From positions 1-64,000 of IMG/VR virus record IMGVR_UViG_3300012920_000023: DNA of 64,000 nt; one strand, given 5' to 3'. A program made the position numbers and the translations under genes. Position 1 is the first letter of the stretch. The number at the start of each line of letters is the position of its first letter. Origin of the DNA: a virus. The notes beneath the pieces were generated by a model. The model did not search any database. It saw only the letters and a program-made list of their open reading frames with translations, and was not told where the DNA came from. Below, one piece after another: positions 1-64,000 of the stretch.

Positions 1-170
1 CGCAGATACCAAAATCACCCCCCAAAATTAAACCGGGTCTTATGGTGCTGTGTTTTCGGTGTCATCCGGGGGCGATTTTTGTTTGCACCTTATGAAGTCC
101 TATATGGTGCTGTTGACTAGTCGGCCTTAAGCCCCCTGCCCCCGTCCTCGCCCCCCCGTTTTCGCCTCCT

Positions 171-353
171 TTAGTCGATGTATTCTGGCCCCGAGGGGTC
201 TAGGGGAATCTTTTGAAGCGTATGACCCGGAAATCGGTTTTTGTAATGCTCAAGGCATTTAAGAGCCTCTTCATAGGTTGAAAAAACCCGAGGTCTAGTG
301 GCTAATAGGCCACGCTCATTGTAAAATGTTAAACAGTATACTTTAGTTTTCAT
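171..353 (-). CDS. Small hypothetical early protein
   Basis: 60-aa ORF with AAGGAGG RBS directly behind the promoter at 389-417. Confidence 0.75.
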   Translation of the reverse strand: MKTKVYCLTFYNERGLLATRPRVFSTYEEALKCLEHYKNRFPGHTLQKIPLDPSGPEYID

Positions 354-388
354 GTTGGCCTCCTTAGCCTTTACCTTAATGATGATTA

Positions 389-417
389 ACTATACCTCGC
401 CCCCTAACTATAGTCAA
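389..417 (-). promoter_or_regulatory. Early sigma70-like promoter
   Basis: TTGACT-N17-TATAGT with upstream A/T-rich UP element. Confidence 0.85.
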
Positions 418-1051
418 GTAAAAAATACATTTATTTTAAAATAATTTCAGATACTTAGGAGCACCATAGGGGGTGTCTTTCTCTTATGGTGCTCTCCTGC
501 CAACCCGGGGTGCCGATCTCTCGGTTATGGTGCTGTGTGTCCGAACGTAAATCCCGATGCGGAGCACCATAGGCATAGAACTGTGCAGTAAGGTGCTGTG
601 TGTGTGAAGCGAATCACGGCAGGATGTGACGGTTCTCACCCGGGTTGGTTAATGGTGCTGTGTGTCGAGCACCTTATAGAGTAGTCACGGCCCCGGTGGT
701 GATGTTGGTAACCCGGTGGAGATTGTTGGAAACCGTTGGTCACCCGGTGGTGAATGTTGGTGGCCCGGGTGCTCAATGGTGCTGTGTGTGTTAAGCGTGT
801 ACGCCCCGGGTGGCGTACGGAGCACCATTATGAGTTTTTTACCCCATGCGGTGGTTCCGGGGTTGTTTTTTGTAGGTCATGCCGTTGATAGTCAAAGGCC
901 GGGATTTTTGTTTTCCCCCTATAGGGAGTTTTAAAAGTTTCAGTCGCCGGGATTGTACCTAAGTTGTTGACTTTAAAACACAATCATGATGACTATCAAT
1001 CCGGGTGTAAAAAACACGTCGCTTCAAATCACCGGGTGCAAAACTTGATAG

Positions 1052-4476: not shown

Positions 4477-5409
4477 ATGACCCCCGATAAACGCCAAAAA
4501 TTACAAGCCTTATTATCAGAGGAATCATATACGGTAGGAGTTGAGGTTGAACAACGAGGAATACCCCGTAACTCAGGTCGATGCCTCATTGAAATCAACA
4601 ACCTCATCAACGAGCATGCTGGGAGCCGATACTCGAAAAAGCGATTCAAGCAAGTATCAGACGGTTCAATCGATGGCTATGATGGCTGTGAGTTTGTAAG
4701 CGGTATCATGCATGGGCAACGTGATATGGAAGTCATTCAACAATCAGTGAGACTCATTCGTGAGCATGGCGGTCGCCCTCACATTTCATGCGGAATTCAC
4801 GTTCATGTTGACGGCTCAAGGTTTTTGGCTAACCCCAAAGCCTTAATCAGACTAGTCAAGTTGGTTGATCGTTATGAGACTCACATGTATCACGCTCTTC
4901 AAGCGGACGCTCTTACAAGCGGTCAAGACCGTTCAGTTCACTTTAGACCCTGCGGTCGTAAAGGTTGGTCAAGACCCGTTGAGGCGACCCTTATTGACCG
5001 ACTTGACGCTCTAGGTAAGAACCCGACCATAGACCAAGTAAGGGACGCTTGGTATAGTGGCCCCGAGGGCGGATCATGGCGGACTAAGTATGATGATACT
5101 AGATACCGCTTGCTCAACCTACACTCCTTATTTTATCAAGGGACTATTGAATTCCGTTGCTTCAATGCAACGGTTCATGCAGGCCGTATCAAGGCTTATA
5201 TTCAACTAGCCATGCTCATTACGGCTCAAGCCTTATTGACGAGTAGGGTTGTGAGAGGTAAGCGTTCATTTGACCCGACCAAGGCTCATTATGAAGTGAG
5301 GACTTGGTTACTCAAGTTAGGAGCCATCGGTGATGAGTACAAAACCATGCGGTTACTATTGACCCGCCACTTAGAGGGCAACGCTTCATGGCATAGAACG
5401 GCCCGTTAA
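4477..5409 (+). CDS. Putative amidoligase (COOH-NH2 ligase type 2)
   Basis: GVEVE, SDGSI, EFVS, SCGIHVHVD, RYRLLNL and GTIEFR motifs typical of the Amidoligase_2 family. Confidence 0.85.
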   Translation: MTPDKRQKLQALLSEESYTVGVEVEQRGIPRNSGRCLIEINNLINEHAGSRYSKKRFKQVSDGSIDGYDGCEFVSGIMHGQRDMEVIQQSVRLIREHGGRPHISCGIHVHVDGSRFLANPKALIRLVKLVDRYETHMYHALQADALTSGQDRSVHFRPCGRKGWSRPVEATLIDRLDALGKNPTIDQVRDAWYSGPEGGSWRTKYDDTRYRLLNLHSLFYQGTIEFRCFNATVHAGRIKAYIQLAMLITAQALLTSRVVRGKRSFDPTKAHYEVRTWLLKLGAIGDEYKTMRLLLTRHLEGNASWHRTAR

Positions 5410-17252: not shown

Positions 17253-17904
17253 CAGAGACATACCGGTAGACGTTCAGCATATAAGACATAAAAAGTTTAA
17301 GGTGCTTCCCTTTTACCAAGAGATTCTTACTATGTTTGAAGAGGGTCAATCGCTCCGCACAGTGGCAAAGTTCTGTCGTGCGAGGGGCTTTTTCGTTGAG
17401 GATGGAGACAGTACTCTACTTTCGGGCTTAAGTCGCCTTAGATCAGATGAAGTCACCGGCTACAACAAGGAGTTTAAAGCACCTCAGAGAGCCAAGGAAA
17501 ATCAAGATTTGATTGATCCGAAGTCTTTGATTGAAATAGACACGACCGATGAGTTGGAACGCTTATATCGATTGCAGTTAGGTCGGGTCAACATGGCGGT
17601 TAAGTTTGAACGCAAGATGAAAGTCCTCAACAGAAATATCGTCCGTGAGGTCGAGGCTTGTGCCTCTATTCTTCAAAGGAAACATGAGGTCGAGAATGTT
17701 GATGGAAACAATGGCATTGTAAATAATCTTACAGTTCGCCCGGAGATAGAGTTAAACTTAGGGGAACAGAGCACTAAGGCTTTAAGTAGTCCGGAGAGTG
17801 CGAGTAGAGTCCTCTCCGTAGCGAAAGGGTTAGCACGTCTTGGCTTGGGTGCTCCAACTGAGTCGGGCACTATTGATGTGCTTGACGAAACTAAGGAGAC
17901 TTAA
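17245..17904 (+). CDS. Putative terminase small subunit
   Basis: Position directly before TerL; N-terminal HTH-like GQSLRTVAKF; helical body. Confidence 0.55.
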   Translation: MGNRDIPVDVQHIRHKKFKVLPFYQEILTMFEEGQSLRTVAKFCRARGFFVEDGDSTLLSGLSRLRSDEVTGYNKEFKAPQRAKENQDLIDPKSLIEIDTTDELERLYRLQLGRVNMAVKFERKMKVLNRNIVREVEACASILQRKHEVENVDGNNGIVNNLTVRPEIELNLGEQSTKALSSPESASRVLSVAKGLARLGLGAPTESGTIDVLDETKET

Positions 17905-17905
17905 A

Positions 17906-19966
17906 ATGTCGGTCATAGTGAACAGCAACGGTCGGGCACATAGTCAACGCTCTAGTGAAGAAGAGTTGGCCTTAGTTATGGCCGAGTTAGAAAACCTATC
18001 TCCCGAAGAACGTGCTCTTTTAGAAGCGACGATGAAAGAGTTGCACTCCGGACAGAATGAGATCGTTAAAGCAATCTCAAAACAGAGATGGCGATGGACT
18101 CCGGTTGACATGGACACATTTCTCGATGATCCCTATTACCTAGGCGAGTCCTCAAAGACACTTTATCCGAAAATTAGAGCCGATTTGAAAGAAGCCTTAA
18201 CCTCCGGTCGGTATCGTGAGATGGTACTCACCGGCGGTATAGGGTACGGGAAAACAACCTTTATTTCATTTGCAGTCGCCCGGATGCTATATGAGATATC
18301 CTGCTTAAGAAACCCACAGGAATCTTATGGTCTGAGTGCAGGGTCTGAGGTCGTTGTGGCTCTTATTTCAAAGAGTCTGCACGTTGCTCGTCAAGTCATG
18401 AAAACTGCTGTAGAAGATAAGTTAAAAATAAGCCCATACTTTCAACAGCATTTTAAAGGCCGGGCAAACCGTGATGTTACGTCATTCCCACACAACGTCA
18501 TGTTAGTAATAGGCTCATGCAACTCCGAGCGTGTCTTAGGTATGAATGTTATCGGAGGTGCGATGGACGAGGCCAACTTTATGACCACTAAAGGACAGGT
18601 GATCAAAGGGCAGGCCGGGGCTAAAAAAAGCATTGCTCAGTATGATTTGGCCGAAAAGGTTTATGCGTCGATTGTTCGTCGTATCAAGTCTCGTTTTTTA
18701 AAGTCTGCAAATGACCTGCCCGGACTTATGGTGCTTGCTTCATCGGCGACTACTGTAAACTCTTTCACAGACAGAAAAATTAAGGCTTCGACAAGTGATC
18801 CCACGGTATTTGTTAGGGATTATGCGAATTGGGAGGTAAAACCGCAGGAGAATTTCTCCGGAGAGAGGTTTGAAGTAGTGGTCGGAAATGGTGGTTTACG
18901 CTCAAAAATACTGAACCCGGATGCCACAGACTCAGAGCGTCGATACTATACAGAGGCCGGGTGTCGTATAATCAATGTGCCTATAGAGTATGTAGAGGAC
19001 TTTGAACGTGATCTAGAATCGGCGATAAGAGACATTGCCGGTATCGCCACACATGCCATATCTGCCTACATACACAGGCTTGAAAAGATTGAAGATGCGG
19101 TGGTGAGATACGATCATGTCCAAGGTTATCAAGCGATTGGCCATCCCTGTACGTCTGATGAATACACAATGAACACTAACTTTGATTTCATGTGGGGTCG
19201 TTTCTGCCGTAAGGGTAAACGCCGTCTCAAAGGGGGGCATGAGGAATATGTTTGGCGTCCTAAGAACGCACCGGGGAAAGCAAGATATATTCACATAGAC
19301 ACTTCTCTGTCCGGTGACTCAACGGGCTTTGTTATGGGTCATATAGACAGACATATTGAAGTAATTCGACGGAATGAGAGTGGTGAAGAGTACTCTGATG
19401 TTGCACCTTTTATAGTTATTGATCTTCTTTTGAGAGTAAACCCACCCGACGGCGATCAAATATTCCTCCCGGACGTTCGACGTATGGTTTATGAACTGCA
19501 AGAGCATGGGTTTCATATTGCAGGCATGTCCTGTGATTCTTATCAGAGTGCAGAGATGATCCAACAGATGAAGAGGCGTGGGGTTAAAGCAGATGTTTTG
19601 TCTGTTGATAGAACCACTGATCCTTATGACGCTTTGAAGTCTGCACTCTATGAGGATAGAATCGCATTTTATGAGTATGCTCCTTTAATCAACGAACTTA
19701 AAACCCTTGAATATGACTCAATAAGACGTAAAGTAGATCACCCGGTTGCCGGCTCCAAAGATGTGGCCGATGCTCTCGCAGGTGTAGTTTATGGCCTTAT
19801 GCAGATGAGACAATCTGCACCTCTTTTAATCAATCAGAGTAAAGGGAGAGTTGAAAATATTTCGTGGATAATGGAAGATAACAAAGTTCCTTGGAAAGCA
19901 GGCAACCCTTTGCCTGCAAAATATGACAATGACGCTAACTCTCCACTCCCAATTATAATAGGTTAA
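17906..19966 (+). CDS. terL: Terminase large subunit
   Basis: Walker A GGIGYGKT, Walker B MDEANF, nuclease motifs HIDTS..D.TG and GSKDVADA. Confidence 0.92.
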   Translation: MSVIVNSNGRAHSQRSSEEELALVMAELENLSPEERALLEATMKELHSGQNEIVKAISKQRWRWTPVDMDTFLDDPYYLGESSKTLYPKIRADLKEALTSGRYREMVLTGGIGYGKTTFISFAVARMLYEISCLRNPQESYGLSAGSEVVVALISKSLHVARQVMKTAVEDKLKISPYFQQHFKGRANRDVTSFPHNVMLVIGSCNSERVLGMNVIGGAMDEANFMTTKGQVIKGQAGAKKSIAQYDLAEKVYASIVRRIKSRFLKSANDLPGLMVLASSATTVNSFTDRKIKASTSDPTVFVRDYANWEVKPQENFSGERFEVVVGNGGLRSKILNPDATDSERRYYTEAGCRIINVPIEYVEDFERDLESAIRDIAGIATHAISAYIHRLEKIEDAVVRYDHVQGYQAIGHPCTSDEYTMNTNFDFMWGRFCRKGKRRLKGGHEEYVWRPKNAPGKARYIHIDTSLSGDSTGFVMGHIDRHIEVIRRNESGEEYSDVAPFIVIDLLLRVNPPDGDQIFLPDVRRMVYELQEHGFHIAGMSCDSYQSAEMIQQMKRRGVKADVLSVDRTTDPYDALKSALYEDRIAFYEYAPLINELKTLEYDSIRRKVDHPVAGSKDVADALAGVVYGLMQMRQSAPLLINQSKGRVENISWIMEDNKVPWKAGNPLPAKYDNDANSPLPIIIG

Positions 19967-19969: not shown

Positions 19970-21517
19970 ATGGGTCTAAGTAAGAACGCATTACAGAAAT
20001 TAAAAGGGTGGTACTCCGGAGAGTCCAACACTGCCGACTTAAAACGTGGTGAGGATAGCGTAAAGCCATCTGTTACGGGTTACCATGCGTTTGGTGCTAC
20101 CGGGTATGACAACCTTTCCTCAACGCTTAAACTTGAAAACAGTATGCTAGAGCGATACGCAGACTATGAAGAGATGGACGATTATCCGGAGATATCGTCT
20201 GCCTTAGATATTTATGCTGATGACGCTACTGTGCCGGATAGTCTCACCGGGTTTACCGTTAACGTAAAGAGTAAGTCTGACGAAGTAAACACACTTCTGA
20301 ATACGATGCTTCATAAAAAAGTAAAAATTGATGAGCAGATTTGGCCCATAACAAGGACTCTAACTAAATATGGAAACGCTTATGCCGAGTTGTTGGTTGA
20401 CGATACCGGGGTTGTTGGCATAAACCCCTTGCCATCTCCGACTGTAAGAAGAATAGAGACAAAAAAAGGCTCCCTTTTAGGTTTTGTTCAAGATTCGTCC
20501 GGCAAGTTTTCTGTTGATAAAGGTATGATCATAAAGGCTCTGAAAGATCCGGATGGCCCTAGGTTGGTCAAGGGTTCAGAGACAGTTATATTTGAGAGGT
20601 CAGAGGTTGTTCATTGGCGTTTAATAGGCAAGAACTTAGCGAGTGAATATGGGTATAGCGTTTTAGATTCGGCGAGGTGGATTTGGCGTCGTCTTGTTAT
20701 GGCCGAGGACTCAGCATTAGTATACAAATTGACACGATCTCCTAGCCGGTTTGCCTTTTACATTGATGTAGGAGATCTCCCATCGGGGCAAGCGATGGCA
20801 TACGTCAATCAAGTCAAACAGCAGTTTAAGAAAAAGAAACTGTACAACCCGGGTACAGGTAAACTTGATTTTAGAATCAACCCTCTTGCTCCCGATGAGG
20901 ACTTTTTTATACCCACCCGTGGAGGGCAGGAGTCAACTCGTATTGATATAATGCAGGGAGCAGACAGTCAGTCAGTTGCTGATCTACAGTATTTTAGAAA
21001 TAAACTATTTTCTGCGTTGAAAGTACCGAAATCATATTTGGGTGCGGACGGTGCGACTAATCGTGCTTCTCTCTCACAGGAGGACGTAAGATTCGCTCGT
21101 ACAGTTATGAGGATTCAGAGAGAGGTCAGAAATGGACTTAAGCGTATGTGTGAGGTTCATTTGGCGATCAATGGTATCGATCCGGCGAGCGTTCAGTTTG
21201 ATATAAAGATGAGTAACCCATCGAGTATTTTTGAGATGGCACAGATTGAACTGCGTAACGCACAGGCAGACAATGCACGTTCTCTACTTGAGTTCTTCCC
21301 GAGGACTTATGTTATGAGCCGGGTATTTGATCTTCCGAGAGAAGAGGCAGAATCTCTCTTAGATCAAAAGGCACAGGAATCGACAGACAAGATGAAAGCA
21401 TTGGCACAACGACAACTAGAGTTAAGAAAAGAATTCCCGACAGTTGACCCTGCGTTATTGCCTGTTATAGAATCTTATACAAAGCACAAACATGAAGAGG
21501 ACTCAGATGTTGATTGA
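19970..21517 (+). CDS. Portal protein (T4 gp20-like)
   Basis: YEEMD.YPEISSALDIYADD, EDSALVYKL.RSP.R.AFYIDVG, EDFFIP, LKVPKSYL. Confidence 0.93.
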   Translation: MGLSKNALQKLKGWYSGESNTADLKRGEDSVKPSVTGYHAFGATGYDNLSSTLKLENSMLERYADYEEMDDYPEISSALDIYADDATVPDSLTGFTVNVKSKSDEVNTLLNTMLHKKVKIDEQIWPITRTLTKYGNAYAELLVDDTGVVGINPLPSPTVRRIETKKGSLLGFVQDSSGKFSVDKGMIIKALKDPDGPRLVKGSETVIFERSEVVHWRLIGKNLASEYGYSVLDSARWIWRRLVMAEDSALVYKLTRSPSRFAFYIDVGDLPSGQAMAYVNQVKQQFKKKKLYNPGTGKLDFRINPLAPDEDFFIPTRGGQESTRIDIMQGADSQSVADLQYFRNKLFSALKVPKSYLGADGATNRASLSQEDVRFARTVMRIQREVRNGLKRMCEVHLAINGIDPASVQFDIKMSNPSSIFEMAQIELRNAQADNARSLLEFFPRTYVMSRVFDLPREEAESLLDQKAQESTDKMKALAQRQLELRKEFPTVDPALLPVIESYTKHKHEEDSDVD

Positions 21518-39812: not shown

Positions 39813-39827
39813 CGCACACATGTGCAC
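39812..39827. promoter_or_regulatory. 16-bp parS-like palindrome, copy 5 (2 mismatches)
   Basis: ACGCAC-ACAT-GTGCAC, just upstream of the MTase. Confidence 0.55.
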
Positions 39828-39844
39828 ACCGACAGGAGTCAACC

Positions 39845-40741: not shown

Positions 40742-40742
40742 G

Positions 40743-41576
40743 ATGTTATACGCTAAACTAGAATCTCTTTTGCAGAGCACTTTTCTCAACGAAGAGTTTG
40801 CCGTTATCAGACCGCCGTTTGCATCGCCTGCCGGTAAGATGCGAATGGCAGTGAGTTTAGCGTCGAAAATTCCGACTCATAGCACTTATGTAGAGCCATT
40901 CGCCGGTTCATCGGCGGTGTTTTTTGCGAAGCCAAAGGCAAGTGTTGAGGTGTTGAATGACCTCGATAGTGATGTCAGTAATGCTTTGAAGTCTCTCGCT
41001 ACTCTTTCTCCTGCCGAGTTAAAGCAACTTACCTCTATGGATTTTACCGGTTCGCAGGCGAAGTATCATCAAGTGTTTGATAGCAGTCCGACAAGTAAAG
41101 TGGGCAAACTGTATCGGTTCTTATACTTGACGAGGTTCTCTATGAACTCCGGGCGTGGACGCAGTCAGTTTAATCATTTTCAAGCGATCACCACTCCTTA
41201 TTTAGCGAGGCGTGTACCTCCTGCGGTTGAACGCTTAAAGGGCGTAAAGGTACACAATGAAGATTATGAAAGTGTGTGCCGAAAGTATGACTCACCTCAG
41301 ACTTTTTTCTTTCTTGACCCTCCTTATTCCGGCTTTAGTGCCCTCAAGGGCAAGGCTTCTGAAAAAGGGTTTGATGAGGAACGCTTTTTTGACCTTTTAA
41401 GGTCGCTAAAGGGCAAATGGCTACTCAACTATGGAACCAAGGGCAAACTGCCCGGTATGCTTAAACAGGCCGGCTTCAAGGTGAGACATGACACGAGATC
41501 AAGTACGGCCAATATAATGAAGCATGGTAAGGCCAATGGTAATAAACTCACTCACATTATTGCTTCAAATTATTAA
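40743..41576 (+). CDS. Dam-like N6-adenine DNA methyltransferase 2 (tandem paralog)
   Basis: Same motifs; long stretches near-identical to MTase 1. Confidence 0.92.
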   Translation: MLYAKLESLLQSTFLNEEFAVIRPPFASPAGKMRMAVSLASKIPTHSTYVEPFAGSSAVFFAKPKASVEVLNDLDSDVSNALKSLATLSPAELKQLTSMDFTGSQAKYHQVFDSSPTSKVGKLYRFLYLTRFSMNSGRGRSQFNHFQAITTPYLARRVPPAVERLKGVKVHNEDYESVCRKYDSPQTFFFLDPPYSGFSALKGKASEKGFDEERFFDLLRSLKGKWLLNYGTKGKLPGMLKQAGFKVRHDTRSSTANIMKHGKANGNKLTHIIASNY

Positions 41577-44239: not shown

Positions 44240-45376
44240 TTAATTTTCATCGCTTTGATCTGCAAATGAAAAATGATCGATACGTTCACATGCCGTGTCA
44301 TAGTATTCAGTTGAGATTTCAATACCTTTGAAGTTGAAACCCTCTTTTCCGCAGGCAATCCCGGTGGTTCCCGATCCCATAAAAGGGTCTAGGACTGTGC
44401 CGTTTGCCGGGGTAACTAATCGCACAAGATATTCCATTAATGCTATAGGTTTAACTGTTTTGTGTGTGTTTGGGTCTGATAGCCCGGCCTGCTTTTCTTT
44501 CTTGCTTGCTTTTGGACAGTAGAAAAAGCGTGTTGCTCCACTGCTCTGCCGTTCAAGCGTCTCAAGTGTCTCTGAGTTAGAGAAGATAATGTTTGAGGGA
44601 AACCTGCCTAGCGGATGACTCTCCACAGTTCTTAGTTTAGTTTTAAACGTACCTATTGAGTCATTTGGTTGATGAGTTGATTTCCATGACTCATCGCTCT
44701 CAATCCGGCAGGCATCAATGTTAAGGCCACCGGTTTTATGCTTAAGCACGTTTTTTACCACCGTACCCTCTAAGGGTTTACGCATAACCAAAATAGGCTC
44801 ATAGGCCGGCTTAAGGGTTGTGCCCCATCCCTCAAACTCAGTATGCCCTTTAGTTATGTATGCGGTCTTACCGACTGTGCCGGACTCATACAACGTGTTG
44901 CTCTTATCACATTTTTCCCGGCTATTAGGATTTCGTCCGATAATTTCACGCTCATTTCCGAGTTTTTTGTCTACCATTTTTCCAATATCTTGGCTCTTAG
45001 GGAAGCCACTCCCATAGACCCAATGTAGGCAGTCTCTGCTTTCAAAGTTTGCGATCCTCATAGATAAGCCCATAAGGTCTTGTGTTCTTGAGCCGGCGAA
45101 CACTAGAGCATGACCTCCGGGCTTTAATACTCGATAAACTTCTTTCCATAACGCAGGAGGGGGGACAAATCCGTCCCAAGATTCACCCATGAACCCTTTT
45201 TTATTCGGGGGCACATAGGAATCATCACCATTTGACCATTCAGTCAGTACCTTAATAAACTCTTTAGTTTTTAGTTGCGACAGGCCATAAGGGGGATCGG
45301 TGACAACAGCGTCTATGGTGTTGCTCTGTATCTCTTTAAGAGCCTGCAAGGCTTCTCCGTTGATTAGTTCATTCAT
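44240..45376 (-). CDS. N4/N6 (beta-class) DNA methyltransferase
   Basis: VTDPPY, RVLKPGG, H.TVKP and VLDPFMGSGTTG motifs. Confidence 0.93.
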   Translation of the reverse strand: MNELINGEALQALKEIQSNTIDAVVTDPPYGLSQLKTKEFIKVLTEWSNGDDSYVPPNKKGFMGESWDGFVPPPALWKEVYRVLKPGGHALVFAGSRTQDLMGLSMRIANFESRDCLHWVYGSGFPKSQDIGKMVDKKLGNEREIIGRNPNSREKCDKSNTLYESGTVGKTAYITKGHTEFEGWGTTLKPAYEPILVMRKPLEGTVVKNVLKHKTGGLNIDACRIESDESWKSTHQPNDSIGTFKTKLRTVESHPLGRFPSNIIFSNSETLETLERQSSGATRFFYCPKASKKEKQAGLSDPNTHKTVKPIALMEYLVRLVTPANGTVLDPFMGSGTTGIACGKEGFNFKGIEISTEYYDTACERIDHFSFADQSDEN

Positions 45377-46946: not shown

Positions 46947-49900
46947 TTAGAGGATCACAAAGTTAAACGTGATATTCGATCCGTCGGCTATCGGTGACCC
47001 GGATTGGTTCGTATAGGTAAACTGAAACGAGCCGTCGGCGACGGTGTGAGGGTGAACATCAACGTGAGCCGAAGCCGTACCCATGATCACGGAGGTGGCT
47101 TTACATAGCGTATTTGAAACGGTGATCGACGTACCCTTTCTAGCACCGTTGCCTAGAGCACCATTAGTAGTCACGGTCACGCTTACACTATGTGTGTTAG
47201 AAGTGAAGTTCCCACTGCTCGTACTCTCATTGGTGCTAGTAGTAGGCTTGCCGAGAATACGCACACCATTACAGTCTAGCGTTGCAAGTGCGGTGTCGGC
47301 AATCGTCGCAGTTGTATCACTATCACTAATGTTAGTTGCATGTCTGTCAAACAACTTGTAAGTGCCGGTATCAGAGCCGTTTGGTTGATATAGGAAGCCG
47401 GCAAACACATCGCTCGATGACGAGTCCTCATACTTGCAGTAAAACCCAATGTTGTTTGTCTGCGGTGAAGTTGCGTTGAGTCCGAGTTGGATCATGGGGT
47501 CTTTGAACTTTACTACAGTCCCTGTTCCCTTAATGGTGCCGGCAACAGTAAGGTCAGCACCTACATCAAGGTCTGTACCGACATCGAGGTCATTACCAAC
47601 CTCAAGGTCTTGAACGATAGAGACATCATCATCAAGTTTAATCGACACGACATTGCTTGAGTTAGTAATATCGATATTGTTATCGGTATTATTAAGCGTA
47701 AGAATCGCAGGACTCGCACCTTGAGTGAAGTTATATTGCCCGGCAGTTCCGGTGGTATCAGTCTTGAGAGTGAACAGTGTGTCGTTCTGCAAGAGGATAT
47801 TCTGTGCACCATTACCGTCGCCACGATCTGCCTGCCAAAGACTACCTGTCTCGTTATAAGCAAGAGTGGCATTAGCACTGTCTCCACGCTCTATAGAGAT
47901 GCCGACAGTATGACTAGGTGTGCCGGTTTGATCACTATTAAGTGTGATAGCAGTAAGCCCCTCGCCGGTAACATTCAATGAAGTCACAGTCGTTACGCCT
48001 GCACCCAAAGTGCCGGTTGTGGACAGATTCTCATCGCCGAATGAAATGGCTCCGGTTGTGTCAGTGATAGACCCGGTGGTGAAAGCCAACGTGCTGTCTA
48101 CAGTCAGATTCCCGAGGATCTTGACATTTCCGACGTCTGCAAACTCCCAATTTGTCTCACTCTCATCCCAAAAGAACTTAGCGTCTGTCGCAGACCCACG
48201 GTTCACGGTCAGACCGAAATCGTCAGTGCTCGCCGGAGCCACACCGCCGGCTAGGTCTGAGTTAAACGTAATCGCTCCTGCGTTCGCAGTTGTGAAGTTA
48301 AGGTTTGAAGTCAGAGTCGTGGCTTGATGGAGTGTAATAGTCTCAGCAAGAGAGTTTATGGTGAGGTAATCTTCGTTTGCGTCCCCTTGTTGAATATGGA
48401 ACGCAGATGCCCGGCCATCGCCTACATTGACGGTAATATCGTTAGTCTTGGGGGAGATCGTAGTAAGTGCAATGTCTGCAACATCTCCAATGTTACCGGC
48501 GTTGTCCATAGAGACACTGCCTGTTACGGTCAGAGATTCAAGGGTTGTCGCTCCTGCGGTTAGAGTACCGGTTGTGGTGATGTTGTCATTGTCAAAACTG
48601 ATCTCTCCTGTGTCGGAGGTGATCTGTAAGTTTGAAGCCCCAAACGTGATGCTTCCACTTGTGCATGAGATTGATCCGTCGGAAATCGTGATGGCATCGG
48701 TTGAACCGCTATCCACAATCAAATCGTTATTAATTTGAACTTTACCGGCGTTATTGAACAACCATGAAAGTTCACCCTCATCCCAATGGAAAATGGCGTT
48801 AGTGCCCGATCCACGGTTGACTGTGATCCCAAAGTCGTCGTTTACATTAGGAGCACTGCCACCGGCGAGGTCAGAGTTGAATACAATCGCCCCTTGTGAA
48901 GCCGTTGGGAAGTTTAAGATACCCTCGGTGGTAATGTTACCGTTTGAAGATGCAATCGTTACTTTCTGTGAGCCAAGAGTAGCACCAATGTGGAGATCGG
49001 CCTGCGAAACTAGTTTAGTGTCAAACGCAAAAGAAGCGTTACTTTGATCCCATTTGAACTTAGCGTTCGTCAGTTCTCCACGCTCCACCTCAATCAAGGT
49101 TGCATCGGCATCTTGACCGCTTCCTGTACGGTCAGAGTTGGCCACAATCAAAGACGCAGTAGCGTCATATTTGAGATTAACGATTCCACCGTGAGTCGTT
49201 GCCTTGGAAAAGGCCACCGGCTCATTGTGTAACACATCCTTTTTAAACTGAATCTCTTCCGAAGAGTCCGTGGTGACGAAAACGAGGTACTCATTAGTGC
49301 TTTCAGTGATTGACAGAGCAGATGGTTGGTTGTCTGCTAGTGAAATCACCATCCCATCACCGGTTTGGTCAGTGATAGAGTCTAGAGCGATGCTTCCTAC
49401 ACCCGAGACATTACCCACTTGAGTAAGACCGCCACTGCTAAAGTCGGCACTTGATACGGTTAGCATACCACCCGTAGTGATCTTTGCGGTTGTAGTGCCG
49501 GCACTCGTTGTGTCTCCGATAGTAAGAGCATTTCCACTTACTCCGGCTTTACCTTGAATGTGCAGACTACCCTGTGGATTGAGGTTAAACTCGCCGGGAT
49601 CTTCATCCCATGAAATGATCGCATTTGTGTCTGTACCACGCTCCACAGTTAGCAGAGTTGCGTCGGCATTATCACCGGCGTTCGTATCATTTGAGTTGAA
49701 CACGATACCGCCACAAGTATCATCTAGGTTAAGAGTGTCGCCTAAAGTTGTAACGCCGGTTACGGCAAGTGTGCTCGTGACTGCGAGAGTACCTGCGATG
49801 GCAGTGTTGCCACTTGAAGCGGTGACATTGAACTTGTTCGCTCCAACAATAAAGTTTCCGGTAGACTTAAGTGCATTAGACAACGCCCAATGGCCATTAG

Positions 49901-52790
49901 TCTCGTCCCACTTGATGCTTGCGTTAGTCTCATCGCCACGCTCTACCTCAATGATTGCGTCTCGCTCTTGGCTTGTGCCTACATCACTGTTGAGCACAAG
50001 CATTGCACTCTGAGAGGCATTACTTAAGTCGCTCGCTTGAATGTTAAGACGGCCTGCCTGCGTAGTCGCACCTGTGGAAGAAACGACAGTGTACTTAGTT
50101 GATCCAACAGCACCTACAGTGAGATTCCCGGTTGAGTTAAGTGCATGACTGAAATCAAACACACCGGGATTAGTGTCCCACTTAATGGTTTTATAAGCCG
50201 GGCCTGCACCGCCGTCATTGACACGGATAAGTGTTGCGTCTCCGGCACTTCCATTTGAAGCGATATCAGAACGGAAGGTGATACCGTCGGATATGCCGTC
50301 CTTGATGTTCAACGCATCTGCAAACGTTGTTGCTCCTGCAATCGAGACAACGCCTGCTGTGCTGACGGTAAACTTGTCGGTGTTGACAGCAAATGTGCCG
50401 TTAGTTGCGATGTTACCGCTAGTGTGTGCGACTGTGAAAGCACCACTGCTCACATTGATTCCACCGTTAGGACTGAGTAGTCCGGAGAAAGACCCGACTC
50501 CAAAACTGCTTGTGGATGTAGATGATGCTGTGAAACCGCCCGATGAACCTGTGCAGGTCATAGAGTCGGCCTTTAACTCATTCCCTCCGAAACTCGTCTC
50601 ACCACTTGCCGAGGTAATCTGTCCGCTTGCGAATGTTAGGTTGGCGATCTTTGACGATGCCGGTAATTCGGTAATCTCATGGAACTGAATCTTGTGTGCA
50701 CTCGTCGTTGTCACAAAAGTGGCGAACCCGTCGGTGTCTGCGGAGGTTCCAATCGTTAAGGCAGAGGGCTTGTTGGCATCTAGGAGAATGTTGAGGTTTG
50801 ACCCATCATCACTCTTCAAAATGTCTGCGGAGAGTGAGCCTACATTAACAATGTTGAAATCACCAACGTCTAGGTTTGCTCCGAGGGTAGTAACTCCCGT
50901 TACTGCTAGTGTACCGGCGATGGCCGTATTACCACTCGCCTGTGCGACTGTAAACTTATTCGTACCGACTGCTGTACCGACTGAGAAGTCTGTGTTTGAG
51001 TGAAGTTTCCCACCGTTTACTGCAAACGTGCTATTGACATCATCCCAAAAAATATAGCCCTCATCGGCATTGCCCGATCCGGCTTCTACAGTGATCAATT
51101 TCACATCGAAGTCAGAACTTTTATTTTGTGCACCACGATCTGAGTTAAAGACGATTCCGAAATCATCGTCCGGTTGGCTTTGAATGAACAGGGTGTCTTT
51201 TACGGTCAACTCTGCGTTTACAAACCCGTTCCTTGTGATGATCAAGTCTTGGCCTACAGTTACATCGGTTGAAACTGAGAGGTTGTGGCTAAACGCCCAA
51301 GTTGTCTCATCATGTTGCCAAGTAATCGTTGAATAAGTATCGCCCATGTCAACGGCAATCACTGCGTTCTGACCCTGCCCTGTGCCTGTATCGGCATTAA
51401 GGATGATCAACTTATCGGATTCAGTAGACTTCTTATTTATACTTAGTGTGGAGTCTGCTCCAAGCGTAGCACCGCCCGTTAGAGTTGACAGTCCGGCTAC
51501 TGAGAGAGTACCGGTTCCTGTCGCACTAATGTTGCCGGAGGTGGTAAGGTTCTCGCTTCCAAAACTAATTTGAGCACCACCGCAGACAATACTTCCATCT
51601 GAGATTGTGATGTCGCCAATGCTTGATCCGGACTTAAAACTAGATACGTCGTTTGTAGCGGTAATCCCACCGTCTGTGTTTACCACGAAGTCATCATTTA
51701 CGTTGATTCCCCCGTCTAGTGAAGCCAAGCCCGTTACGTTGACTTCTCCGGATGCGGTCAAATCTTTAAGAGACAGGTCTGCGTCCGTTGTGTTACCGGT
51801 GGTGAAGTCGGATGCTGTGTGTGCTTCTGTGGTTAGCCCGAATCTAAATGCACTTGCGGAGTCGTCAAAGTACAAGATAGCGTCGTTCCCACTGTTACCA
51901 CGCTCCATCAGAATACCGATATCGTTTGAGTTAGCACCTCCTGCCACCGAGTGGTTCAAGCGAATAACCGGATCTTTAACCTCTAGGGTTGTTGTGTTAA
52001 CCGTTGTGGCAGTTCCGCTAATCAACAGGTCGCCGGTTATTACAACCTTACTGCCTGTACCACCAAGAGTAATGGTGTGTGGGTTATTGCTTCCGTCTTT
52101 AGTAACGGTCGCTCCGATAGAGACATTTCCGTTAGTGAAGTCTAAGCCTGTAAGCCCGGTAAATGCAGTTTCTGTGGCTCCGAGGGCTACAGAAGTCGCC
52201 CCGATAGTCACTGTACTGTTAGTCAGTTTGGCATTTGAGATTGCACTATTATTAATAATGTCGATTTTAGCCGATGTGATAGCACCGCTTTGAAGCGTCG
52301 CCACACCCTCGTTATTGATGTTTAAGTCGCCGGAGATGGGCTTATTTCTAAACTGATTTGCCCCGGTACTCCCGTCGGAGTCAGTATTAAAGATAAGAAA
52401 ATCTGCGTCTGAGAGTGCGTCCTCAGTGCCACCGTCTACTCCTAGGGTGACGTTTGACAGTGAGCCGATCTCAATCGATGAAGCACCACCGGAGTCAACG
52501 TATCCTTTAGTCGCCACGTCGGAGGATTCGGCAGGTTCTTCAACACCTCTTAGCCTAACGGTCGCATTACCTGCACTATCTAGGAACGAAACAACTTGAC
52601 CTGCGGAAAGGACGTTAGAACCGAGGTTGTCCAAGTCGGCTCTGAGTGTCTCACGGCCACCGTTGGTTGTGCCGTCATGGACACGGATAGAACTGTTCGT
52701 AGTGTCTACCGTGATTTCACCGATAGCCCCTGCAAAGGCATCATTTTGCGTGTGTGTACCACGCCTTAGTTTTACTCGTCTTACTGACAT
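46947..52790 (-). CDS. Long fibre protein with Mtd-like N-terminal domain and internal repeats
   Basis: LRRGT...F.GA.GEITVDT....RVHDG.T.GG; about 10 (E/N)RG...NA...WD repeats. Confidence 0.8.
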   Translation of the reverse strand: MSVRRVKLRRGTHTQNDAFAGAIGEITVDTTNSSIRVHDGTTNGGRETLRADLDNLGSNVLSAGQVVSFLDSAGNATVRLRGVEEPAESSDVATKGYVDSGGASSIEIGSLSNVTLGVDGGTEDALSDADFLIFNTDSDGSTGANQFRNKPISGDLNINNEGVATLQSGAITSAKIDIINNSAISNAKLTNSTVTIGATSVALGATETAFTGLTGLDFTNGNVSIGATVTKDGSNNPHTITLGGTGSKVVITGDLLISGTATTVNTTTLEVKDPVIRLNHSVAGGANSNDIGILMERGNSGNDAILYFDDSASAFRFGLTTEAHTASDFTTGNTTDADLSLKDLTASGEVNVTGLASLDGGINVNDDFVVNTDGGITATNDVSSFKSGSSIGDITISDGSIVCGGAQISFGSENLTTSGNISATGTGTLSVAGLSTLTGGATLGADSTLSINKKSTESDKLIILNADTGTGQGQNAVIAVDMGDTYSTITWQHDETTWAFSHNLSVSTDVTVGQDLIITRNGFVNAELTVKDTLFIQSQPDDDFGIVFNSDRGAQNKSSDFDVKLITVEAGSGNADEGYIFWDDVNSTFAVNGGKLHSNTDFSVGTAVGTNKFTVAQASGNTAIAGTLAVTGVTTLGANLDVGDFNIVNVGSLSADILKSDDGSNLNILLDANKPSALTIGTSADTDGFATFVTTTSAHKIQFHEITELPASSKIANLTFASGQITSASGETSFGGNELKADSMTCTGSSGGFTASSTSTSSFGVGSFSGLLSPNGGINVSSGAFTVAHTSGNIATNGTFAVNTDKFTVSTAGVVSIAGATTFADALNIKDGISDGITFRSDIASNGSAGDATLIRVNDGGAGPAYKTIKWDTNPGVFDFSHALNSTGNLTVGAVGSTKYTVVSSTGATTQAGRLNIQASDLSNASQSAMLVLNSDVGTSQERDAIIEVERGDETNASIKWDETNGHWALSNALKSTGNFIVGANKFNVTASSGNTAIAGTLAVTSTLAVTGVTTLGDTLNLDDTCGGIVFNSNDTNAGDNADATLLTVERGTDTNAIISWDEDPGEFNLNPQGSLHIQGKAGVSGNALTIGDTTSAGTTTAKITTGGMLTVSSADFSSGGLTQVGNVSGVGSIALDSITDQTGDGMVISLADNQPSALSITESTNEYLVFVTTDSSEEIQFKKDVLHNEPVAFSKATTHGGIVNLKYDATASLIVANSDRTGSGQDADATLIEVERGELTNAKFKWDQSNASFAFDTKLVSQADLHIGATLGSQKVTIASSNGNITTEGILNFPTASQGAIVFNSDLAGGSAPNVNDDFGITVNRGSGTNAIFHWDEGELSWLFNNAGKVQINNDLIVDSGSTDAITISDGSISCTSGSITFGASNLQITSDTGEISFDNDNITTTGTLTAGATTLESLTVTGSVSMDNAGNIGDVADIALTTISPKTNDITVNVGDGRASAFHIQQGDANEDYLTINSLAETITLHQATTLTSNLNFTTANAGAITFNSDLAGGVAPASTDDFGLTVNRGSATDAKFFWDESETNWEFADVGNVKILGNLTVDSTLAFTTGSITDTTGAISFGDENLSTTGTLGAGVTTVTSLNVTGEGLTAITLNSDQTGTPSHTVGISIERGDSANATLAYNETGSLWQADRGDGNGAQNILLQNDTLFTLKTDTTGTAGQYNFTQGASPAILTLNNTDNNIDITNSSNVVSIKLDDDVSIVQDLEVGNDLDVGTDLDVGADLTVAGTIKGTGTVVKFKDPMIQLGLNATSPQTNNIGFYCKYEDSSSSDVFAGFLYQPNGSDTGTYKLFDRHATNISDSDTTATIADTALATLDCNGVRILGKPTTSTNESTSSGNFTSNTHSVSVTVTTNGALGNGARKGTSITVSNTLCKATSVIMGTASAHVDVHPHTVADGSFQFTYTNQSGSPIADGSNITFNFVIL

Positions 52791-59624: not shown

Positions 59625-62441
59625 ATGTCACTACTAGGTTTTAACTTTTCTTTTGGTGCTAGGGATGATGGTTTTGCGTCGGCCTTAACAAGAGCCGGTT
59701 CCGGCATTCAAAACGTCTCGGCCAAGTTTGATGGTTTAGCCAAGCAGGTGAGCAGTGGAAACTTCTTCAATGCGATGAACACTCTACAACTTGATCGGAT
59801 TGGCGATCAGTTAGCAGGATTGAAAGGTCAAAGCACTCAACTAGAGACAAGTCTAGAGGGTACGTTCAGAGGTATGTCTGCCGAAATAAGGCCGGCATTG
59901 GCTCAAATGAATCTGACTCAAAAAGAGTTCAGTAGAGCCAACTCTCAAATTGTGTCTACAGCAGACGCTTTAAATGTGGGTGCAGGGGAAGTTGCTTCGT
60001 CATTTCGGGCGATAAGTCGTACCGGAGAAAGCACTAAAAAAGTGCTGAAAAGCATGGGCATCGGGATGAAAGAGTTGACCTTAATCCAAAAGGCAACGGG
60101 GATGGAGTCTGAACAGTTCACGGCCTTAGTCACAAACCTTACTGACTCCTATGGCTTCAATACAGAAGAGACCAAGAGTTTCCTAAACAACTTTACAAAC
60201 TTAAGTCAAGGTTTAGGCATTGCAGACATAGCCTTTGGTTCGCTCCAAGAAACAATGGGGACACTAGACGAAACTTTATCTTCAAACACACAGTTTATGG
60301 CGATGAGTCGTGAAGAGCAGGCGAAGCACGTTGAAGAACAGGTCATGGGCGTGCAGAGGCTAACCAAGTCGTTTATGACGCTAGGTAAAACGCCACAAGA
60401 GGCTCAAGCGTCGGCACTCCAATTCTTTAAGACGATTAGTCAAGAACGCAAAAGCATTAATGGTATGACTATTGGTATAGGAGATATGGGGGAGACGTTT
60501 AAGTCATTGGCAGAAGAAGCCGGTTTTCAGAACGTGGATAAACTGTTTAGCAATATATCTTCTGATCCGGTGCAGGCACTCCAACAGATAATGGAGATGC
60601 AGGAGGAATTGGCTAAAGCCGGTGATCCTGCGAAACTAGCCCGTTTCAACTCAAAATTGCAGGACATGATGGGCGGTTTGGCATTTATGAAAGATGCCGG
60701 CAAAGGGTTTAGAGACTCTCTCGGAAAGGTAAATGAAGCCACATCAAAGACGGGCGATGGATTAGTAGGCATGGCCAAAAGGGCACACACCACGAATCGT
60801 GGTCTCGATGAGGTGCTTACTAGGATGGAAGACCGGTTTGAAAGGAACTTGATGAAGTTGACCGGTAACACCCGTACGATGTTTGTTCGGCAACAGAGAG
60901 ACATGTATAAGGTTGTTGGTAAAGAAGCGAAGAACCTTGCCGGTAATGAGACTTGGGGGCCACTCTTCAAGCAGTTTGTGTCTGCAAGAAAGATTGGAGC
61001 ATCGGCATTCTTCTTACCAATGCAACGAGATGCCAAGCAGACAAAAAAGGCTCTTGCCGGAATTGACGAGGCTGTGGGTCAAGGTGGGCTTTTGGGTCGG
61101 TTTAAGGCGATACAGTCGGCAGGTATAGCAGGGTTCTTTATGGACTTAGACGGGGCTTTTAAGTCAAACGCAGACAGGCTTAAGGACGCAGAGGACAAGG
61201 CTTTAAAATACTATGCAAGACTTGAAGCGATTGGGTTGACAACGGAGACATTAAAGCCGGCTCTCATGGCTCTCGGGACAGCGTTTGCAAGTCTGTTTGT
61301 AGTGACTAAGGTTGTCAGTTCTCTTGCTACATTAGTATCTATAGGTGGTTCTGTAGCCGGGGTGCTTACTTCAATCGCCGGGGGAATAGCGTCGGCAATC
61401 GGGGCAATAGCGTCTGCCCCGGCGGTCATTGCGGTGGCACTCGCCGGATTAATATACGGCATCGGTGAGGGGATAAAGTTTCTCGCAAACGCCCCTCAAG
61501 AGTTCTTCGACGGCATAGCAGACACGATTGACAATGCCACAATATATTTAAGTGATGCGTTTGATGCGATCATGGACATAGATGTATTTATGATGGTGAC
61601 AACAATGCTAGATAAACTAGAGGATTGGATATTTTCTGTATTTAAAGGCTTGGCTTCGTTTTTTAGCAACCCGTCTAAGTTTATGGTTGTTATAAATGCG
61701 ATAGGTCGTTTCGGCATAAAACTTGGAATGGTTGCTGTCGCAGTTTTAGGAAAACTAGGTGAAGTGTTCGTTGCTATAGGGCTTAAAGCAGTTTCAAACT
61801 TGCAGAGAGGATTTCAATTCGGCATGAATCTTCTTGACGAATATGTGGGGAAGCCTCTCAGATCGTTAGGCCGTAAGATTAGTAAGGCATGGAACGAAAG
61901 GATAGTCGAGCCGGTAGCCAAGGCAGGCACTTATCTGTACGATGCTTTTACAAAGCCTTTTGAATATATCTCCGAATGGTGGGCAGGCTTCTCGTTAGTT
62001 GATAAGTTTAAGGAGAACGTGTGGTTCCCATTGGCGAGGTTCATAATAACGATTGGAAAATCGATCATGATCTTCTTTAATGATGTACTGATTAAACCGT
62101 TTCAAGGTCTTATCAACATGCTCATTAAAGTGTTCAACAGTGTAAATGACCTCTTACCTAAGAGTCTTCAGTTAGCAAGAAAAGAGTACGTTAATTTCTC
62201 ACTTACTGATGAAAACATGGGTGATGTCCTCATGGGTCGGGTGACTTCTGATTACGGTAAAGAGCCGGCAGGAAAAGATGTAAAAGTTGCTGTTGATCAG
62301 ACTAAGGTCGAGCGTTTACTCGCAGATGGCATCAAGATAAATAAAGAAATGCTTGAAGAGGCGAAACGATCCCGTGGAACCCCCAAAGGTGGCACATCGC
62401 CACATAATACCGGAACCACACAAGTAGCACTTAGGAGATAG
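59625..62441 (+). CDS. Tape measure protein
   Basis: 938 aa, helical, A/G-rich hydrophobic block; follows the chaperone. Confidence 0.85.
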   Translation: MSLLGFNFSFGARDDGFASALTRAGSGIQNVSAKFDGLAKQVSSGNFFNAMNTLQLDRIGDQLAGLKGQSTQLETSLEGTFRGMSAEIRPALAQMNLTQKEFSRANSQIVSTADALNVGAGEVASSFRAISRTGESTKKVLKSMGIGMKELTLIQKATGMESEQFTALVTNLTDSYGFNTEETKSFLNNFTNLSQGLGIADIAFGSLQETMGTLDETLSSNTQFMAMSREEQAKHVEEQVMGVQRLTKSFMTLGKTPQEAQASALQFFKTISQERKSINGMTIGIGDMGETFKSLAEEAGFQNVDKLFSNISSDPVQALQQIMEMQEELAKAGDPAKLARFNSKLQDMMGGLAFMKDAGKGFRDSLGKVNEATSKTGDGLVGMAKRAHTTNRGLDEVLTRMEDRFERNLMKLTGNTRTMFVRQQRDMYKVVGKEAKNLAGNETWGPLFKQFVSARKIGASAFFLPMQRDAKQTKKALAGIDEAVGQGGLLGRFKAIQSAGIAGFFMDLDGAFKSNADRLKDAEDKALKYYARLEAIGLTTETLKPALMALGTAFASLFVVTKVVSSLATLVSIGGSVAGVLTSIAGGIASAIGAIASAPAVIAVALAGLIYGIGEGIKFLANAPQEFFDGIADTIDNATIYLSDAFDAIMDIDVFMMVTTMLDKLEDWIFSVFKGLASFFSNPSKFMVVINAIGRFGIKLGMVAVAVLGKLGEVFVAIGLKAVSNLQRGFQFGMNLLDEYVGKPLRSLGRKISKAWNERIVEPVAKAGTYLYDAFTKPFEYISEWWAGFSLVDKFKENVWFPLARFIITIGKSIMIFFNDVLIKPFQGLINMLIKVFNSVNDLLPKSLQLARKEYVNFSLTDENMGDVLMGRVTSDYGKEPAGKDVKVAVDQTKVERLLADGIKINKEMLEEAKRSRGTPKGGTSPHNTGTTQVALRR

Positions 62442-62449
62442 GAGTAAGT

Positions 62450-62797
62450 ATGCCTAAAACTATAGGATCAAAACCAAATCGAAACTCTTGGCTAAACTTC
62501 TGTGAACCTACCGAAATAAAGTTAATCAAAGGATCATTCAAAAACCCGGAGAGGACGGGGTATTTTGAGTTGTTCATCCCCCCCACTATCCCAAGTTCTG
62601 AGAATGACATAAGGCATATTGTGTCTGTACATGAACGAGTCGACTTGATTGCACACAAGTATTATGGAACGTCAGAACTTTGGTGGGTCATTGCGGAGCG
62701 TAACAATATTGATCTCCCCATAGCAGAATTAAGAAGAGGGATGGAGTTGATCATTCCTGCAAGAAGTGTCGTTGAACTAGTTATTTCAAAGGTGTAA
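62450..62797 (+). CDS. Baseplate wedge LysM-like (gp53/tail X-like) protein
   Basis: RVDLIAHKYYG..ELWWVIA..N. Confidence 0.85.
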   Translation: MPKTIGSKPNRNSWLNFCEPTEIKLIKGSFKNPERTGYFELFIPPTIPSSENDIRHIVSVHERVDLIAHKYYGTSELWWVIAERNNIDLPIAELRRGMELIIPARSVVELVISKV

Positions 62798-62802
62798 AAA
62801 TT

Positions 62803-64000
62803 ATGGCCGGAAGTTCTCATTTTAATGCTCTCTGTCAGATCACGATTCATACCGTTAATGGTCAAGATGTCGCTATGGGTGTCGGTACTGACTACCCATT
62901 TGTTACGTCCGTACAGGTCACTCGTGTCTTTGAGAGGTCGTCGGATATTAGCGTCACGATTGAAGCACCGTTCAACGAGGGTCGTGAAATGATGAATAGT
63001 GATCTGTTTCATAGTGGAAATAAGATCACCATAAGAATGAGTTATCCGGACGATTCAAAGGCTCAATTTGAAGTGCAGGGCGTTATTCTCAAGGGGGGAG
63101 TCGGGTTGTCTGTCACCCCAAATGGGATCAGTGGTTCTCTTTCTGTCCGTGGCACAAGTATAACATCGGAGCAGAAGAAGCCTATGGTGCAACCCGGTGA
63201 AAACTATGATGCCTTTGTTTGGCTCAAAGCGGTGGTTGTAGAGGCCGGGTATATTGATCTTATAGCATCTGAGAGAATAAAGAATGATCTCAGTATCATC
63301 GATACGCAGTTTAATGGAGCGAATAGTCTAGAGGGGCATTTAGAGGATTTCTGTATGATGAACGGCTTCCGATGGGTTGAGAACTACGATATGGACAGGG
63401 GAGGCAACATCATTGAAATCCTAGACGATGAAGAGATCGATATAAAGCCGGTGTCTAGAATATTTGTAATGAGAGATTCATTTATGGACACGGCGTATCT
63501 TGCTAACAATGAGTTTATCAAGAACGCAGGAGCAGAAAAGGCCACTGCCTATCCAATTATCTCTTATTCTCCGGAGTTATCCGGGGGATTCTTCGCTAAT
63601 ACAGAGACTATGAAATCAAGTTTAAGAGGTATAGATGGTGATGGTAAAACGGAAGTGAAAGACGAGACCGCCAAGTCTGTAAGGTCGGTTAAGCAGGGGA
63701 TAAAGGGGGGAGACCCGTCAGATGGCACAGAGGATCAACAGGCAGGTGGAACGACAACGGTCAAGGCGGTAGACGAAAAGACCACCGGCGAGGTCATAAG
63801 TCCGCTTTATCCGGAGACTAAAGATAGAGATGTAGACAAAAAGAGACTCGTTAGAGTCATGAGTAGGAATTTGATATCGTACAATGCGAGCCTTACCACT
63901 TTTGGTGTGCCGGATCTCGTACCGTCAGAGAGGATTGCTGTTGTCGGATTAGGTGCTCTCCTTGATGGAATCTTTACAGTCAAAGAGGTTACTCAAGTTT
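62803..64000 (+). CDS. Baseplate hub/late-control D-like protein (runs off the window; not in ORF track)
   Basis: ATG at 62803 (MAGSSHFNA..); the end of the window reads GVPDLVPSERIAVVGLGALLDGIFTVKEV, typical of hub proteins. Confidence 0.7.
   Translation, partial: MAGSSHFNALCQITIHTVNGQDVAMGVGTDYPFVTSVQVTRVFERSSDISVTIEAPFNEGREMMNSDLFHSGNKITIRMSYPDDSKAQFEVQGVILKGGVGLSVTPNGISGSLSVRGTSITSEQKKPMVQPGENYDAFVWLKAVVVEAGYIDLIASERIKNDLSIIDTQFNGANSLEGHLEDFCMMNGFRWVENYDMDRGGNIIEILDDEEIDIKPVSRIFVMRDSFMDTAYLANNEFIKNAGAEKATAYPIISYSPELSGGFFANTETMKSSLRGIDGDGKTEVKDETAKSVRSVKQGIKGGDPSDGTEDQQAGGTTTVKAVDEKTTGEVISPLYPETKDRDVDKKRLVRVMSRNLISYNASLTTFGVPDLVPSERIAVVGLGALLDGIFTVKEVTQV

Follow-up and report, generated by a model that had tools for sequence, protein, structure and literature searches.

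Loss of GCNGC and of the alanine-alanine dipeptide from the genome of an uncultured marine T4-like phage

The genome of an uncultured marine T4-like myovirus phage contains no copy of the DNA word GCNGC, and its proteins contain no Ala-Ala dipeptide. The ban on GCNGC acts at the level of the DNA word: it spans every frame and both strands and extends to non-coding DNA. The purge is not confined to GCNGC and covers about 16 words across the whole record. We consider it likely that the phage has been under long selection to carry no target of sequence-specific DNA-cutting defences, most likely the Type II enzymes of marine hosts.

Results

Source record and gene content

The window, by which we mean the whole stretch of DNA that was analysed, is 64,000 bp long and opens a single record of 113,463 bp, IMGVR_UViG_3300012920_000023. 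CheckV estimates this record to be 63% complete. Its virion genes encode a T4-type portal, a prohead protease, the major capsid protein, a tail sheath and baseplate proteins, and its replication and recombination genes encode DnaB, a primase, a helicase and a bacterial-type RecA. Further genes were found for the large terminase, class II ribonucleotide reductase, ThyX, MazG, PhoH and ParB. Most of the large proteins have no match in PHROGs or Pfam, and no tRNA genes were found in the phage during the host search. Among the isolates in phage collections none is close, the best capsid identity being 33%. DNA of the phage is present in marine metagenomes from three studies, the runs being labelled only 'marine metagenome', and one of these runs contains a 122.6-kb sister contig that is about 96% identical.

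GCNGC and Ala-Ala are absent

Exact counting returned no GCNGC in the 64,000-bp window and none in the 113,463-bp record, with each of the four variants (GCAGC, GCTGC, GCGGC and GCCGC) at zero in both. From base composition, the window should hold about 168 copies and the record 285; the roughly 150 estimated in a first-pass annotation, made from the sequence alone, was therefore fair. We also permuted synonymous codons within each gene of the record, a null that keeps codon usage and the proteins (already without Ala-Ala) fixed. This shuffle predicts 101 ± 10 copies of GCNGC, with a minimum of 82 in 100 shuffles. In the 10.6 kb of non-coding DNA the count is again zero, where about 19 copies are expected.

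The same annotation had reported no Ala-Ala in any ORF, which the dipeptide count bears out: 149.7 pairs are expected from 159 ORFs (34,383 aa, 6.6% Ala) and none is seen. Both the word and the dipeptide thus lie far below expectation. Alanine itself is not avoided, since A-x-A occurs at 1.29 times its expectation. Because GCN GCN always contains GCNGC, and because GCNGC is its own reverse complement, Ala-Ala cannot be encoded in any frame on either strand. Accordingly, no Ala-Ala codon pair is found in any of the six frames of the window, and the antisense ORFs are free of the dipeptide, as had been noticed at first reading. The absence extends to two long Ala-rich proteins that had been singled out there:

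46947..52790, minus strand: 1947-aa fibre, 9.2% Ala, Ala-Ala 0 against 16.5 expected
59625..62441, plus strand: 938-aa Ala-rich protein, 10.2% Ala, Ala-Ala 0 against 9.8 expected; no family match ('tape measure' is the label given by the first-pass annotation)

The coincidence of the two absences could in principle be read the other way round, with selection on protein or translation acting against Ala-Ala and GCNGC lost as a by-product. Beyond this coincidence nothing favours such a reading. In proteins without Ala-Ala, the 101 ± 10 copies of the shuffle are still expected in the other two reading frames and at codon junctions, and words that have no dipeptide consequence are purged equally completely. 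As GCNGC is also missing from non-coding DNA, the target is DNA and not protein or translation. The frame and non-coding counts refute protein-level selection, and we give it practically no weight.

About 16 words are purged together

Measured against the same shuffle of the whole record, GCGC (0 observed, 180 expected), CGCG (0, 156), AGCT (0, 305) and GGWCC (0, 101) are gone, and CCAG/CTGG is reduced to 3 copies from an expected 545. GCGGG/CCCGC occurs twice in the record, compared with 108 expected. Ten longer palindromes are each at zero where the shuffle gives 10–25 copies; long words at zero in the whole record are CTGCAG, CATATG, CCATGG, AGGCCT, GGATCC, TTCGAA, TACGTA, GCTAGC, CCTNAGG, TAATTA and GGGCCC. 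Overall, 22 of the 64 palindromic hexamers are missing from the record. The words at zero in the window are GCNGC, GCGC, CGCG, AGCT, CCAG, GGWCC and CTGCAG. GATC is not avoided (527 copies, 495 expected from the shuffle), GGCC is likewise normal, and CCGG is nearly twice as common as expected (810 against 445). The three CTGG copies that survive in the record are:

185..188, plus strand: surviving CTGG
4619..4622, plus strand: surviving CTGG inside an amidoligase-like gene (placed by annotation and exact word location)
genome position 85548, outside the window: surviving CTGG

Given the whole set of banned words, Ala-Ala is the only dipeptide left without a permitted codon pair. The only further unencodable tripeptides are Trp-Asp-Pro and Met-Asp-Pro, and Gly-Pro, half of whose codon pairs are banned, is found 43 times where 98 are expected.

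Nearly all of the purged words are palindromes familiar as Type II targets. The corresponding enzymes would be Fnu4HI, HhaI, FnuDII, AluI, AvaII and PstI, together with others. Since GCNGC is only one of about 16 such words, the pressure appears to come from a whole repertoire rather than from one enzyme. One host rarely carries so many specificities, and the pattern may therefore sum many hosts over time. To our knowledge no enzyme recognises CCAG, and a literature search found none; the purge of this word may thus reflect another kind of nuclease or a DNA-binding factor.

Residues that replace Ala-Ala

We aligned the proteins of the window with those of related contigs. In total, 138 positions of the window align with an Ala-Ala of one or more of seven non-redundant relatives, and one Ala is kept at 68 of them. 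The partner residue at these 68 positions is most frequently Ser (14), Thr (10) or Gly (6), and in 44 of the 68 it is a single base change away from GCN. At 22 positions Ala-Ala is the majority state among the relatives, and the window differs at every one of them, in agreement with the earlier proposal that Ala-Ala had been substituted. Three genes illustrate this:

17840..19966, plus strand: large terminase (family match and alignment to relatives)
19970..21517, plus strand: T4-type portal, gp20 (family match and alignment to relatives)
25004..26587, plus strand: T4-type major capsid protein, gp23 (family match and alignment to relatives)

Terminase residues 303-304 are AT, where eight of nine GCNGC-carrying relatives have AA, and residues 329-330 are AN, where seven of the nine have AA. 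The portal carries AI at residues 399-400, opposite AA in 10 of 11 relatives. In the capsid protein, residues 14-17 read TAID and more distant relatives have TAAD. The capsid motif WSAEAVDDL had also been put forward as a substitution of Ala-Ala. This does not hold, because the motif is invariant across the family, being unchanged in 13 of 13 relatives whatever their GCNGC content, the GCNGC-rich ones included.

The N-terminus of the fibre resembles Mtd of Bordetella phage BPP-1, and GAIGEITVD (nt 52704-52730) aligns with GAAREITVD of Mtd. For DVATKGYVD of the fibre, no aligned homologue was found among the loci of the relatives or in S-TIP37, and the family match of the cyclase that carries the NICAR motif is weak (E=0.007).

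Methyltransferase motifs

Three DNA methyltransferase genes lie in the window:

39809..40741, plus strand: D12-class (Dam-like) adenine methyltransferase 1, motif I FAGSASV at nt 40010-40030 with codons TCT GCG TCT
40719..41576, plus strand: D12-class adenine methyltransferase 2, the tandem paralogue, motif I FAGSSAV at nt 40899-40919 with codons TCA TCG GCG
44240..45376, minus strand: N6_N4 DNA methyltransferase with a DPPY motif (family match)

In the Dam family, motif I reads EPFxG followed by SAA, GAA or AAA (usually SAA) and V, and 105 of the 166 instances contain AA. At this place the two paralogues have SAS and SSA, so that the same constraint has been met in two ways. Both motifs had been named as substitutions that avoid Ala-Ala, and comparison with the family supports this.

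The unavoided GATC and the three adenine or N4-cytosine methyltransferases suggest that the phage may methylate some sites and purge those that it cannot protect. Most of the purged sites are classical C5-methylated targets, and the record, itself estimated as 63% complete, yielded no C5 methyltransferase. A check for hypermodification of about 60 proteins from this incomplete record yielded ThyX, MazG and the class II ribonucleotide reductase as nucleotide-metabolism genes, and no hydroxymethylase or similar modified-base gene.

A conserved RecA motif is rewritten

RecA is encoded outside the window:

genome 104458-105651: RecA

The strand that follows the Walker B aspartate reads DSIASL here. 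E. coli has DSVAAL at this place, and most homologues have DS(I/L/V)AA(L/M). The AS codons are GCT TCT, one base from Ala-Ala. Among the 28 closest RecA homologues, the four with AS are exactly the four whose whole protein is free of Ala-Ala; with the motif itself left out of the Ala-Ala count, a Fisher test gives a P of about 7e-4. For the homologues P0002, P0007 and P0014, which lack Ala-Ala, and for P0003 and P0004, which have AA, GCNGC status was judged from the protein only: AA in a RecA homologue means that GCNGC is present, and its absence only suggests that GCNGC is absent too.

On a tree of 43 RecA sequences, the AS/AA state requires at least three changes, with P0014 as an independent case. 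The AU test rejects monophyly of the three close AS forms (p=0.03), a group that was chosen post hoc from the tree. P0003 and P0004, which carry AAL, are nested among the AS forms, and this placement suggests that AA may have been regained once the GCNGC ban lapsed.

The first-pass annotation had concluded that host restriction pressure was strong enough to force amino-acid changes. The forced changes themselves stand, in RecA, the two Dam paralogues, the terminase, the portal and the N-terminus of the fibre. As an account of the pressure this conclusion was incomplete, because about 16 words are purged and not the target of one enzyme.

A mosaic of banned words among relatives

About 30 related contigs were collected by searches with the capsid, terminase, sheath and RecA. 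Scans of IMG/VR with RecA, terminase and sheath gave no additional close relatives. Three of the contigs, L001, L020 and L002, share about 82% capsid identity with the window. The words missing from L001 are those missing from the window. L020 is without GCNGC, GCGC, CCAG, GGWCC and CTGCAG and carries 13-20 copies each of AGCT and CGCG. All four variants of GCNGC are absent from L001 and L020 as well. In L002 (56% GC), GCNGC, GCGC and CGCG are normal, AGCT and GGWCC are absent and CCAG is almost absent. More distant clades, at about 62% capsid identity, purge AGCT, CCAG and AATT, or AGCT, GGWCC and CCGG, or nothing. Where a relative carries GCNGC, Ala-Ala in the same orthologues reaches 0.5-1.06 of its expectation, whereas it is zero in the window and L001.

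Given this mosaic, each word behaves as a separate pressure. Independent gain and loss of words would be predicted if the restriction systems of the hosts change, and fits poorly with one conserved cause borne by the phage. Such a cause is the core of one alternative, in which nucleases of the phage cut these words in host DNA and its own genome must therefore be free of them. The purge of AGCT and CCAG does reach many relatives whose capsids are only about 60% identical, which a conserved phage factor could explain. Self-avoidance would, however, need about 16 specificities. Among the roughly 60 proteins scanned from the incomplete record there is no restriction-endonuclease or HNH family and only one PD-(D/E)XK protein, which is RecB/Cas4-like. 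In addition, close relatives differ in the words they miss, a better fit to changing hosts. We regard self-avoidance as improbable.

The ban is also old. Mean amino acid identity among the window, L001 and L020 is 70-73%, yet the three have replacements in common at ancestral AA sites: the AT and AN of the terminase recur in L020, and the AI of the portal in both L001 and L020. The ban on GCNGC therefore predates their split and has held since. It is likewise visible between strains. Of about 950 differences from the sister strain (~96% identical), 40 are listed, and none of these 40 creates a banned word where about 4 would be expected (P≈0.015).

Words could also be lost by mutation without selection, if the host or the phage methylates them at C5 and deamination of 5-methylcytosine then erodes them. 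Most purged words are classical C5-methylation targets, and transitions dominate the strain differences (the 40 listed of ~950), as such decay would have it. On its own, though, decay is not expected to reach exactly zero from 100-500 expected sites, would not keep that zero across about 30% protein divergence and would not override conserved residues of RecA and Dam. CTGCAG, CATATG and TTCGAA are typically adenine-methylated targets, and the record shows no C5 methyltransferase. Mutational decay is to our minds no more probable than self-avoidance.

Base-calling or assembly errors at modified motifs, by which the words would have been erased from the consensus, have to be considered as well, since methylated motifs can give systematic errors in some long-read assemblies. 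Against this stand L001 and L020, independently assembled from other samples with other pipelines and showing the same absence, the ~96%-identical 122.6-kb contig in other runs, and the RecA homologues from other sources that also lack Ala-Ala. The record keeps a coding density of 91% with intact long ORFs, and the replacements are conservative and common to relatives. The chance of such an artefact appears very small.

A candidate host was rejected

L020 sits in a 0.9-Mb MAG, 'bacterium ARS1290', which at 44% GC matches the contig. The RpoB of this MAG is 82% identical to proteins of Jorgensenbacteria/Parcubacteria (Patescibacteria). Word counts are normal in its other contigs, and a search of the MAG for a C5 methyltransferase found none; one is present in only 4 of 41 related genomes. 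We rejected this MAG as a supported host, because composition-based binning could explain the association of L020 with it.

Discussion

The data show that the words are banned, that the ban reaches into protein sequence, that it is old and that it varies within the family; we infer restriction enzymes to be the selecting agent. Restriction avoidance accounts better than any of the four alternatives, namely selection on the protein, self-avoidance, mutational decay and artefact, for the frame and non-coding counts, the mosaic and the independent assemblies. Under restriction avoidance, each surviving site would expose the incoming unmodified genome to cutting by the host. Sites would be lost one at a time, and newly arising ones would be purged. 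For most words the choice of synonymous codons suffices. GCNGC is the exception, since purging this word also purges the Ala-Ala dipeptide; one Ala usually stays and the adjacent position changes to Ser, Thr, Gly or a different residue, also within conserved motifs of catalytic cores. Self-methylation would then be a second anti-restriction route, running in parallel to the purge.

Restriction avoidance can thus outweigh protein conservation: a dipeptide is gone, and a recombinase and two methyltransferases have had conserved motifs altered. The main interest of the case lies in this clean, family-level evidence of DNA-level defence overriding conserved protein motifs. Dipeptides missing from a viral proteome can serve to spot strong restriction pressure quickly. 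The purged words predict, in a testable way, which defences an uncultured host possesses, and the phage family supplies natural replicates in which the protein cost of word bans can be measured.

A wider reading can be put forward tentatively, and we hold it at rather below even confidence. Evasion of DNA-level defence might be a measurable and recurrent constraint on phage proteins, with a nearly invariant core motif of RecA moving repeatedly from AA to AS and regaining AA when the ban lapses. The purged set might then be a fingerprint of host defences that includes an undescribed nuclease specific for CCAG, an asymmetric tetramer.

Comparison with known systems

Restriction-site avoidance in virulent dsDNA phages is well established, as set out in the survey of Rusinov et al. 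(2018; PMC6286503) and in a review (PMC8410138). In the papers searched, avoidance is treated as an effect on synonymous codons and is measured against null models in which the protein does not change (PMC8410138, PMC7320823). From the present case it follows that standard statistics of this kind will put the pressure too low and overlook GCNGC. According to Rusinov et al., avoidance of GCNGC is uncommon, with CB<1 for just 22.5% of the cases (PMC6286503). The rarity of its avoidance in that survey is probably due to the coding of Ala-Ala. Our literature search found no description of a dipeptide lost through restriction avoidance.

The purge described here resembles phage restriction-site avoidance in that short palindromic, Type II-like words are wholly or almost wholly lost on both strands of a non-temperate-looking tailed phage, and in that different relatives lose different words. 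Unlike in the surveyed cases, GCNGC is gone, a dipeptide is abolished, conserved motifs are changed and about 16 words are purged together. All four 5-mer variants of GCNGC are missing, as a single enzyme of the Fnu4HI type reading GCNGC predicts, although a TseI-like (GCWGC) and a TauI-like (GCSGC) enzyme acting as a pair would give the same pattern. With two D12-class and one N6_N4 enzyme and an unavoided GATC, the phage is also similar to those that methylate their own DNA with orphan Dam-like methyltransferases. In contrast to such self-methylation systems, methylation cannot explain the words purged here, and it represents a parallel strategy. The case represents known restriction-site avoidance with an extreme effect at the protein level.

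Depletion and excess of tetramers

The asymmetric tetramer CCAG/CTGG is purged from the phage, with only 3 copies observed across the whole genome against 545 expected. The survivors are located at:

185 (window), CCAG/CTGG copy
4619 (window), CCAG/CTGG copy
85548 (genome), CCAG/CTGG copy

The same purge is seen in many relatives with a capsid identity of only ~60%. To our knowledge, no restriction enzyme of this 4-bp specificity has been described, and a literature search for an enzyme reading CCAG/CTGG found none. CCGG is present in 1.8-fold excess over the synonymous null in the whole genome (810 vs 445), and is almost wholly purged in one related clade (L003, L013, L035 and L037). AATT reaches 0.42 of expectation in the genome and is close to zero in several relatives.

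Relatives of the phage

A strain ~96% identical to window positions 17840-37807 lies on a 122.6-kb contig and is present in 2025 marine runs. Three short stretches of it have diverged or been replaced:

29085-29219 (window), diverged or replaced
29696-29795 (window), diverged or replaced
36687-36811 (window), diverged or replaced

Binning places a close relative of the 113-kb myovirus (L020/L032, 81% capsid identity) in a Patescibacteria MAG of 0.9 Mb; the two have the same GC content. If true, this link would suggest a large phage infecting a CPR bacterium; nothing that we tested supported it. The same MAG includes a 27-kb contig, in whose first 20,000 positions (L031) AGCT (5) and GGCC (3) are low and CTGCAG is absent, whereas the MAG's other contigs differ. 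The contig probably represents another phage or mobile element, one that has undergone a separate purge.

Unusual gene set, RecA and fibre

Three window genes form a combination that is unusual for a T4-like phage:

4471-5409, Amidoligase_2 protein
13852-14793, DUF932 protein
55365-56162, GGACT (gamma-glutamyl cyclotransferase-like) protein

The RecA (L017:6458-7651, genome 104458-105651) is of the bacterial type, not UvsX. Downstream of its Walker A region it carries an insert of ~68 residues holding CxxC and CxC pairs, a pattern that could possibly represent a zinc ribbon; homologue lengths suggest that the insert is kept across the family.

46947-52790 (-), fibre

The first ~130 residues of the fibre resemble the N-terminus of Mtd of Bordetella phage BPP-1. 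They also resemble the N-terminal part of tail fibres in marine Synechococcus and Pelagibacter phages; the alignment with S-TIP37 spans 132 aa at 41% identity.
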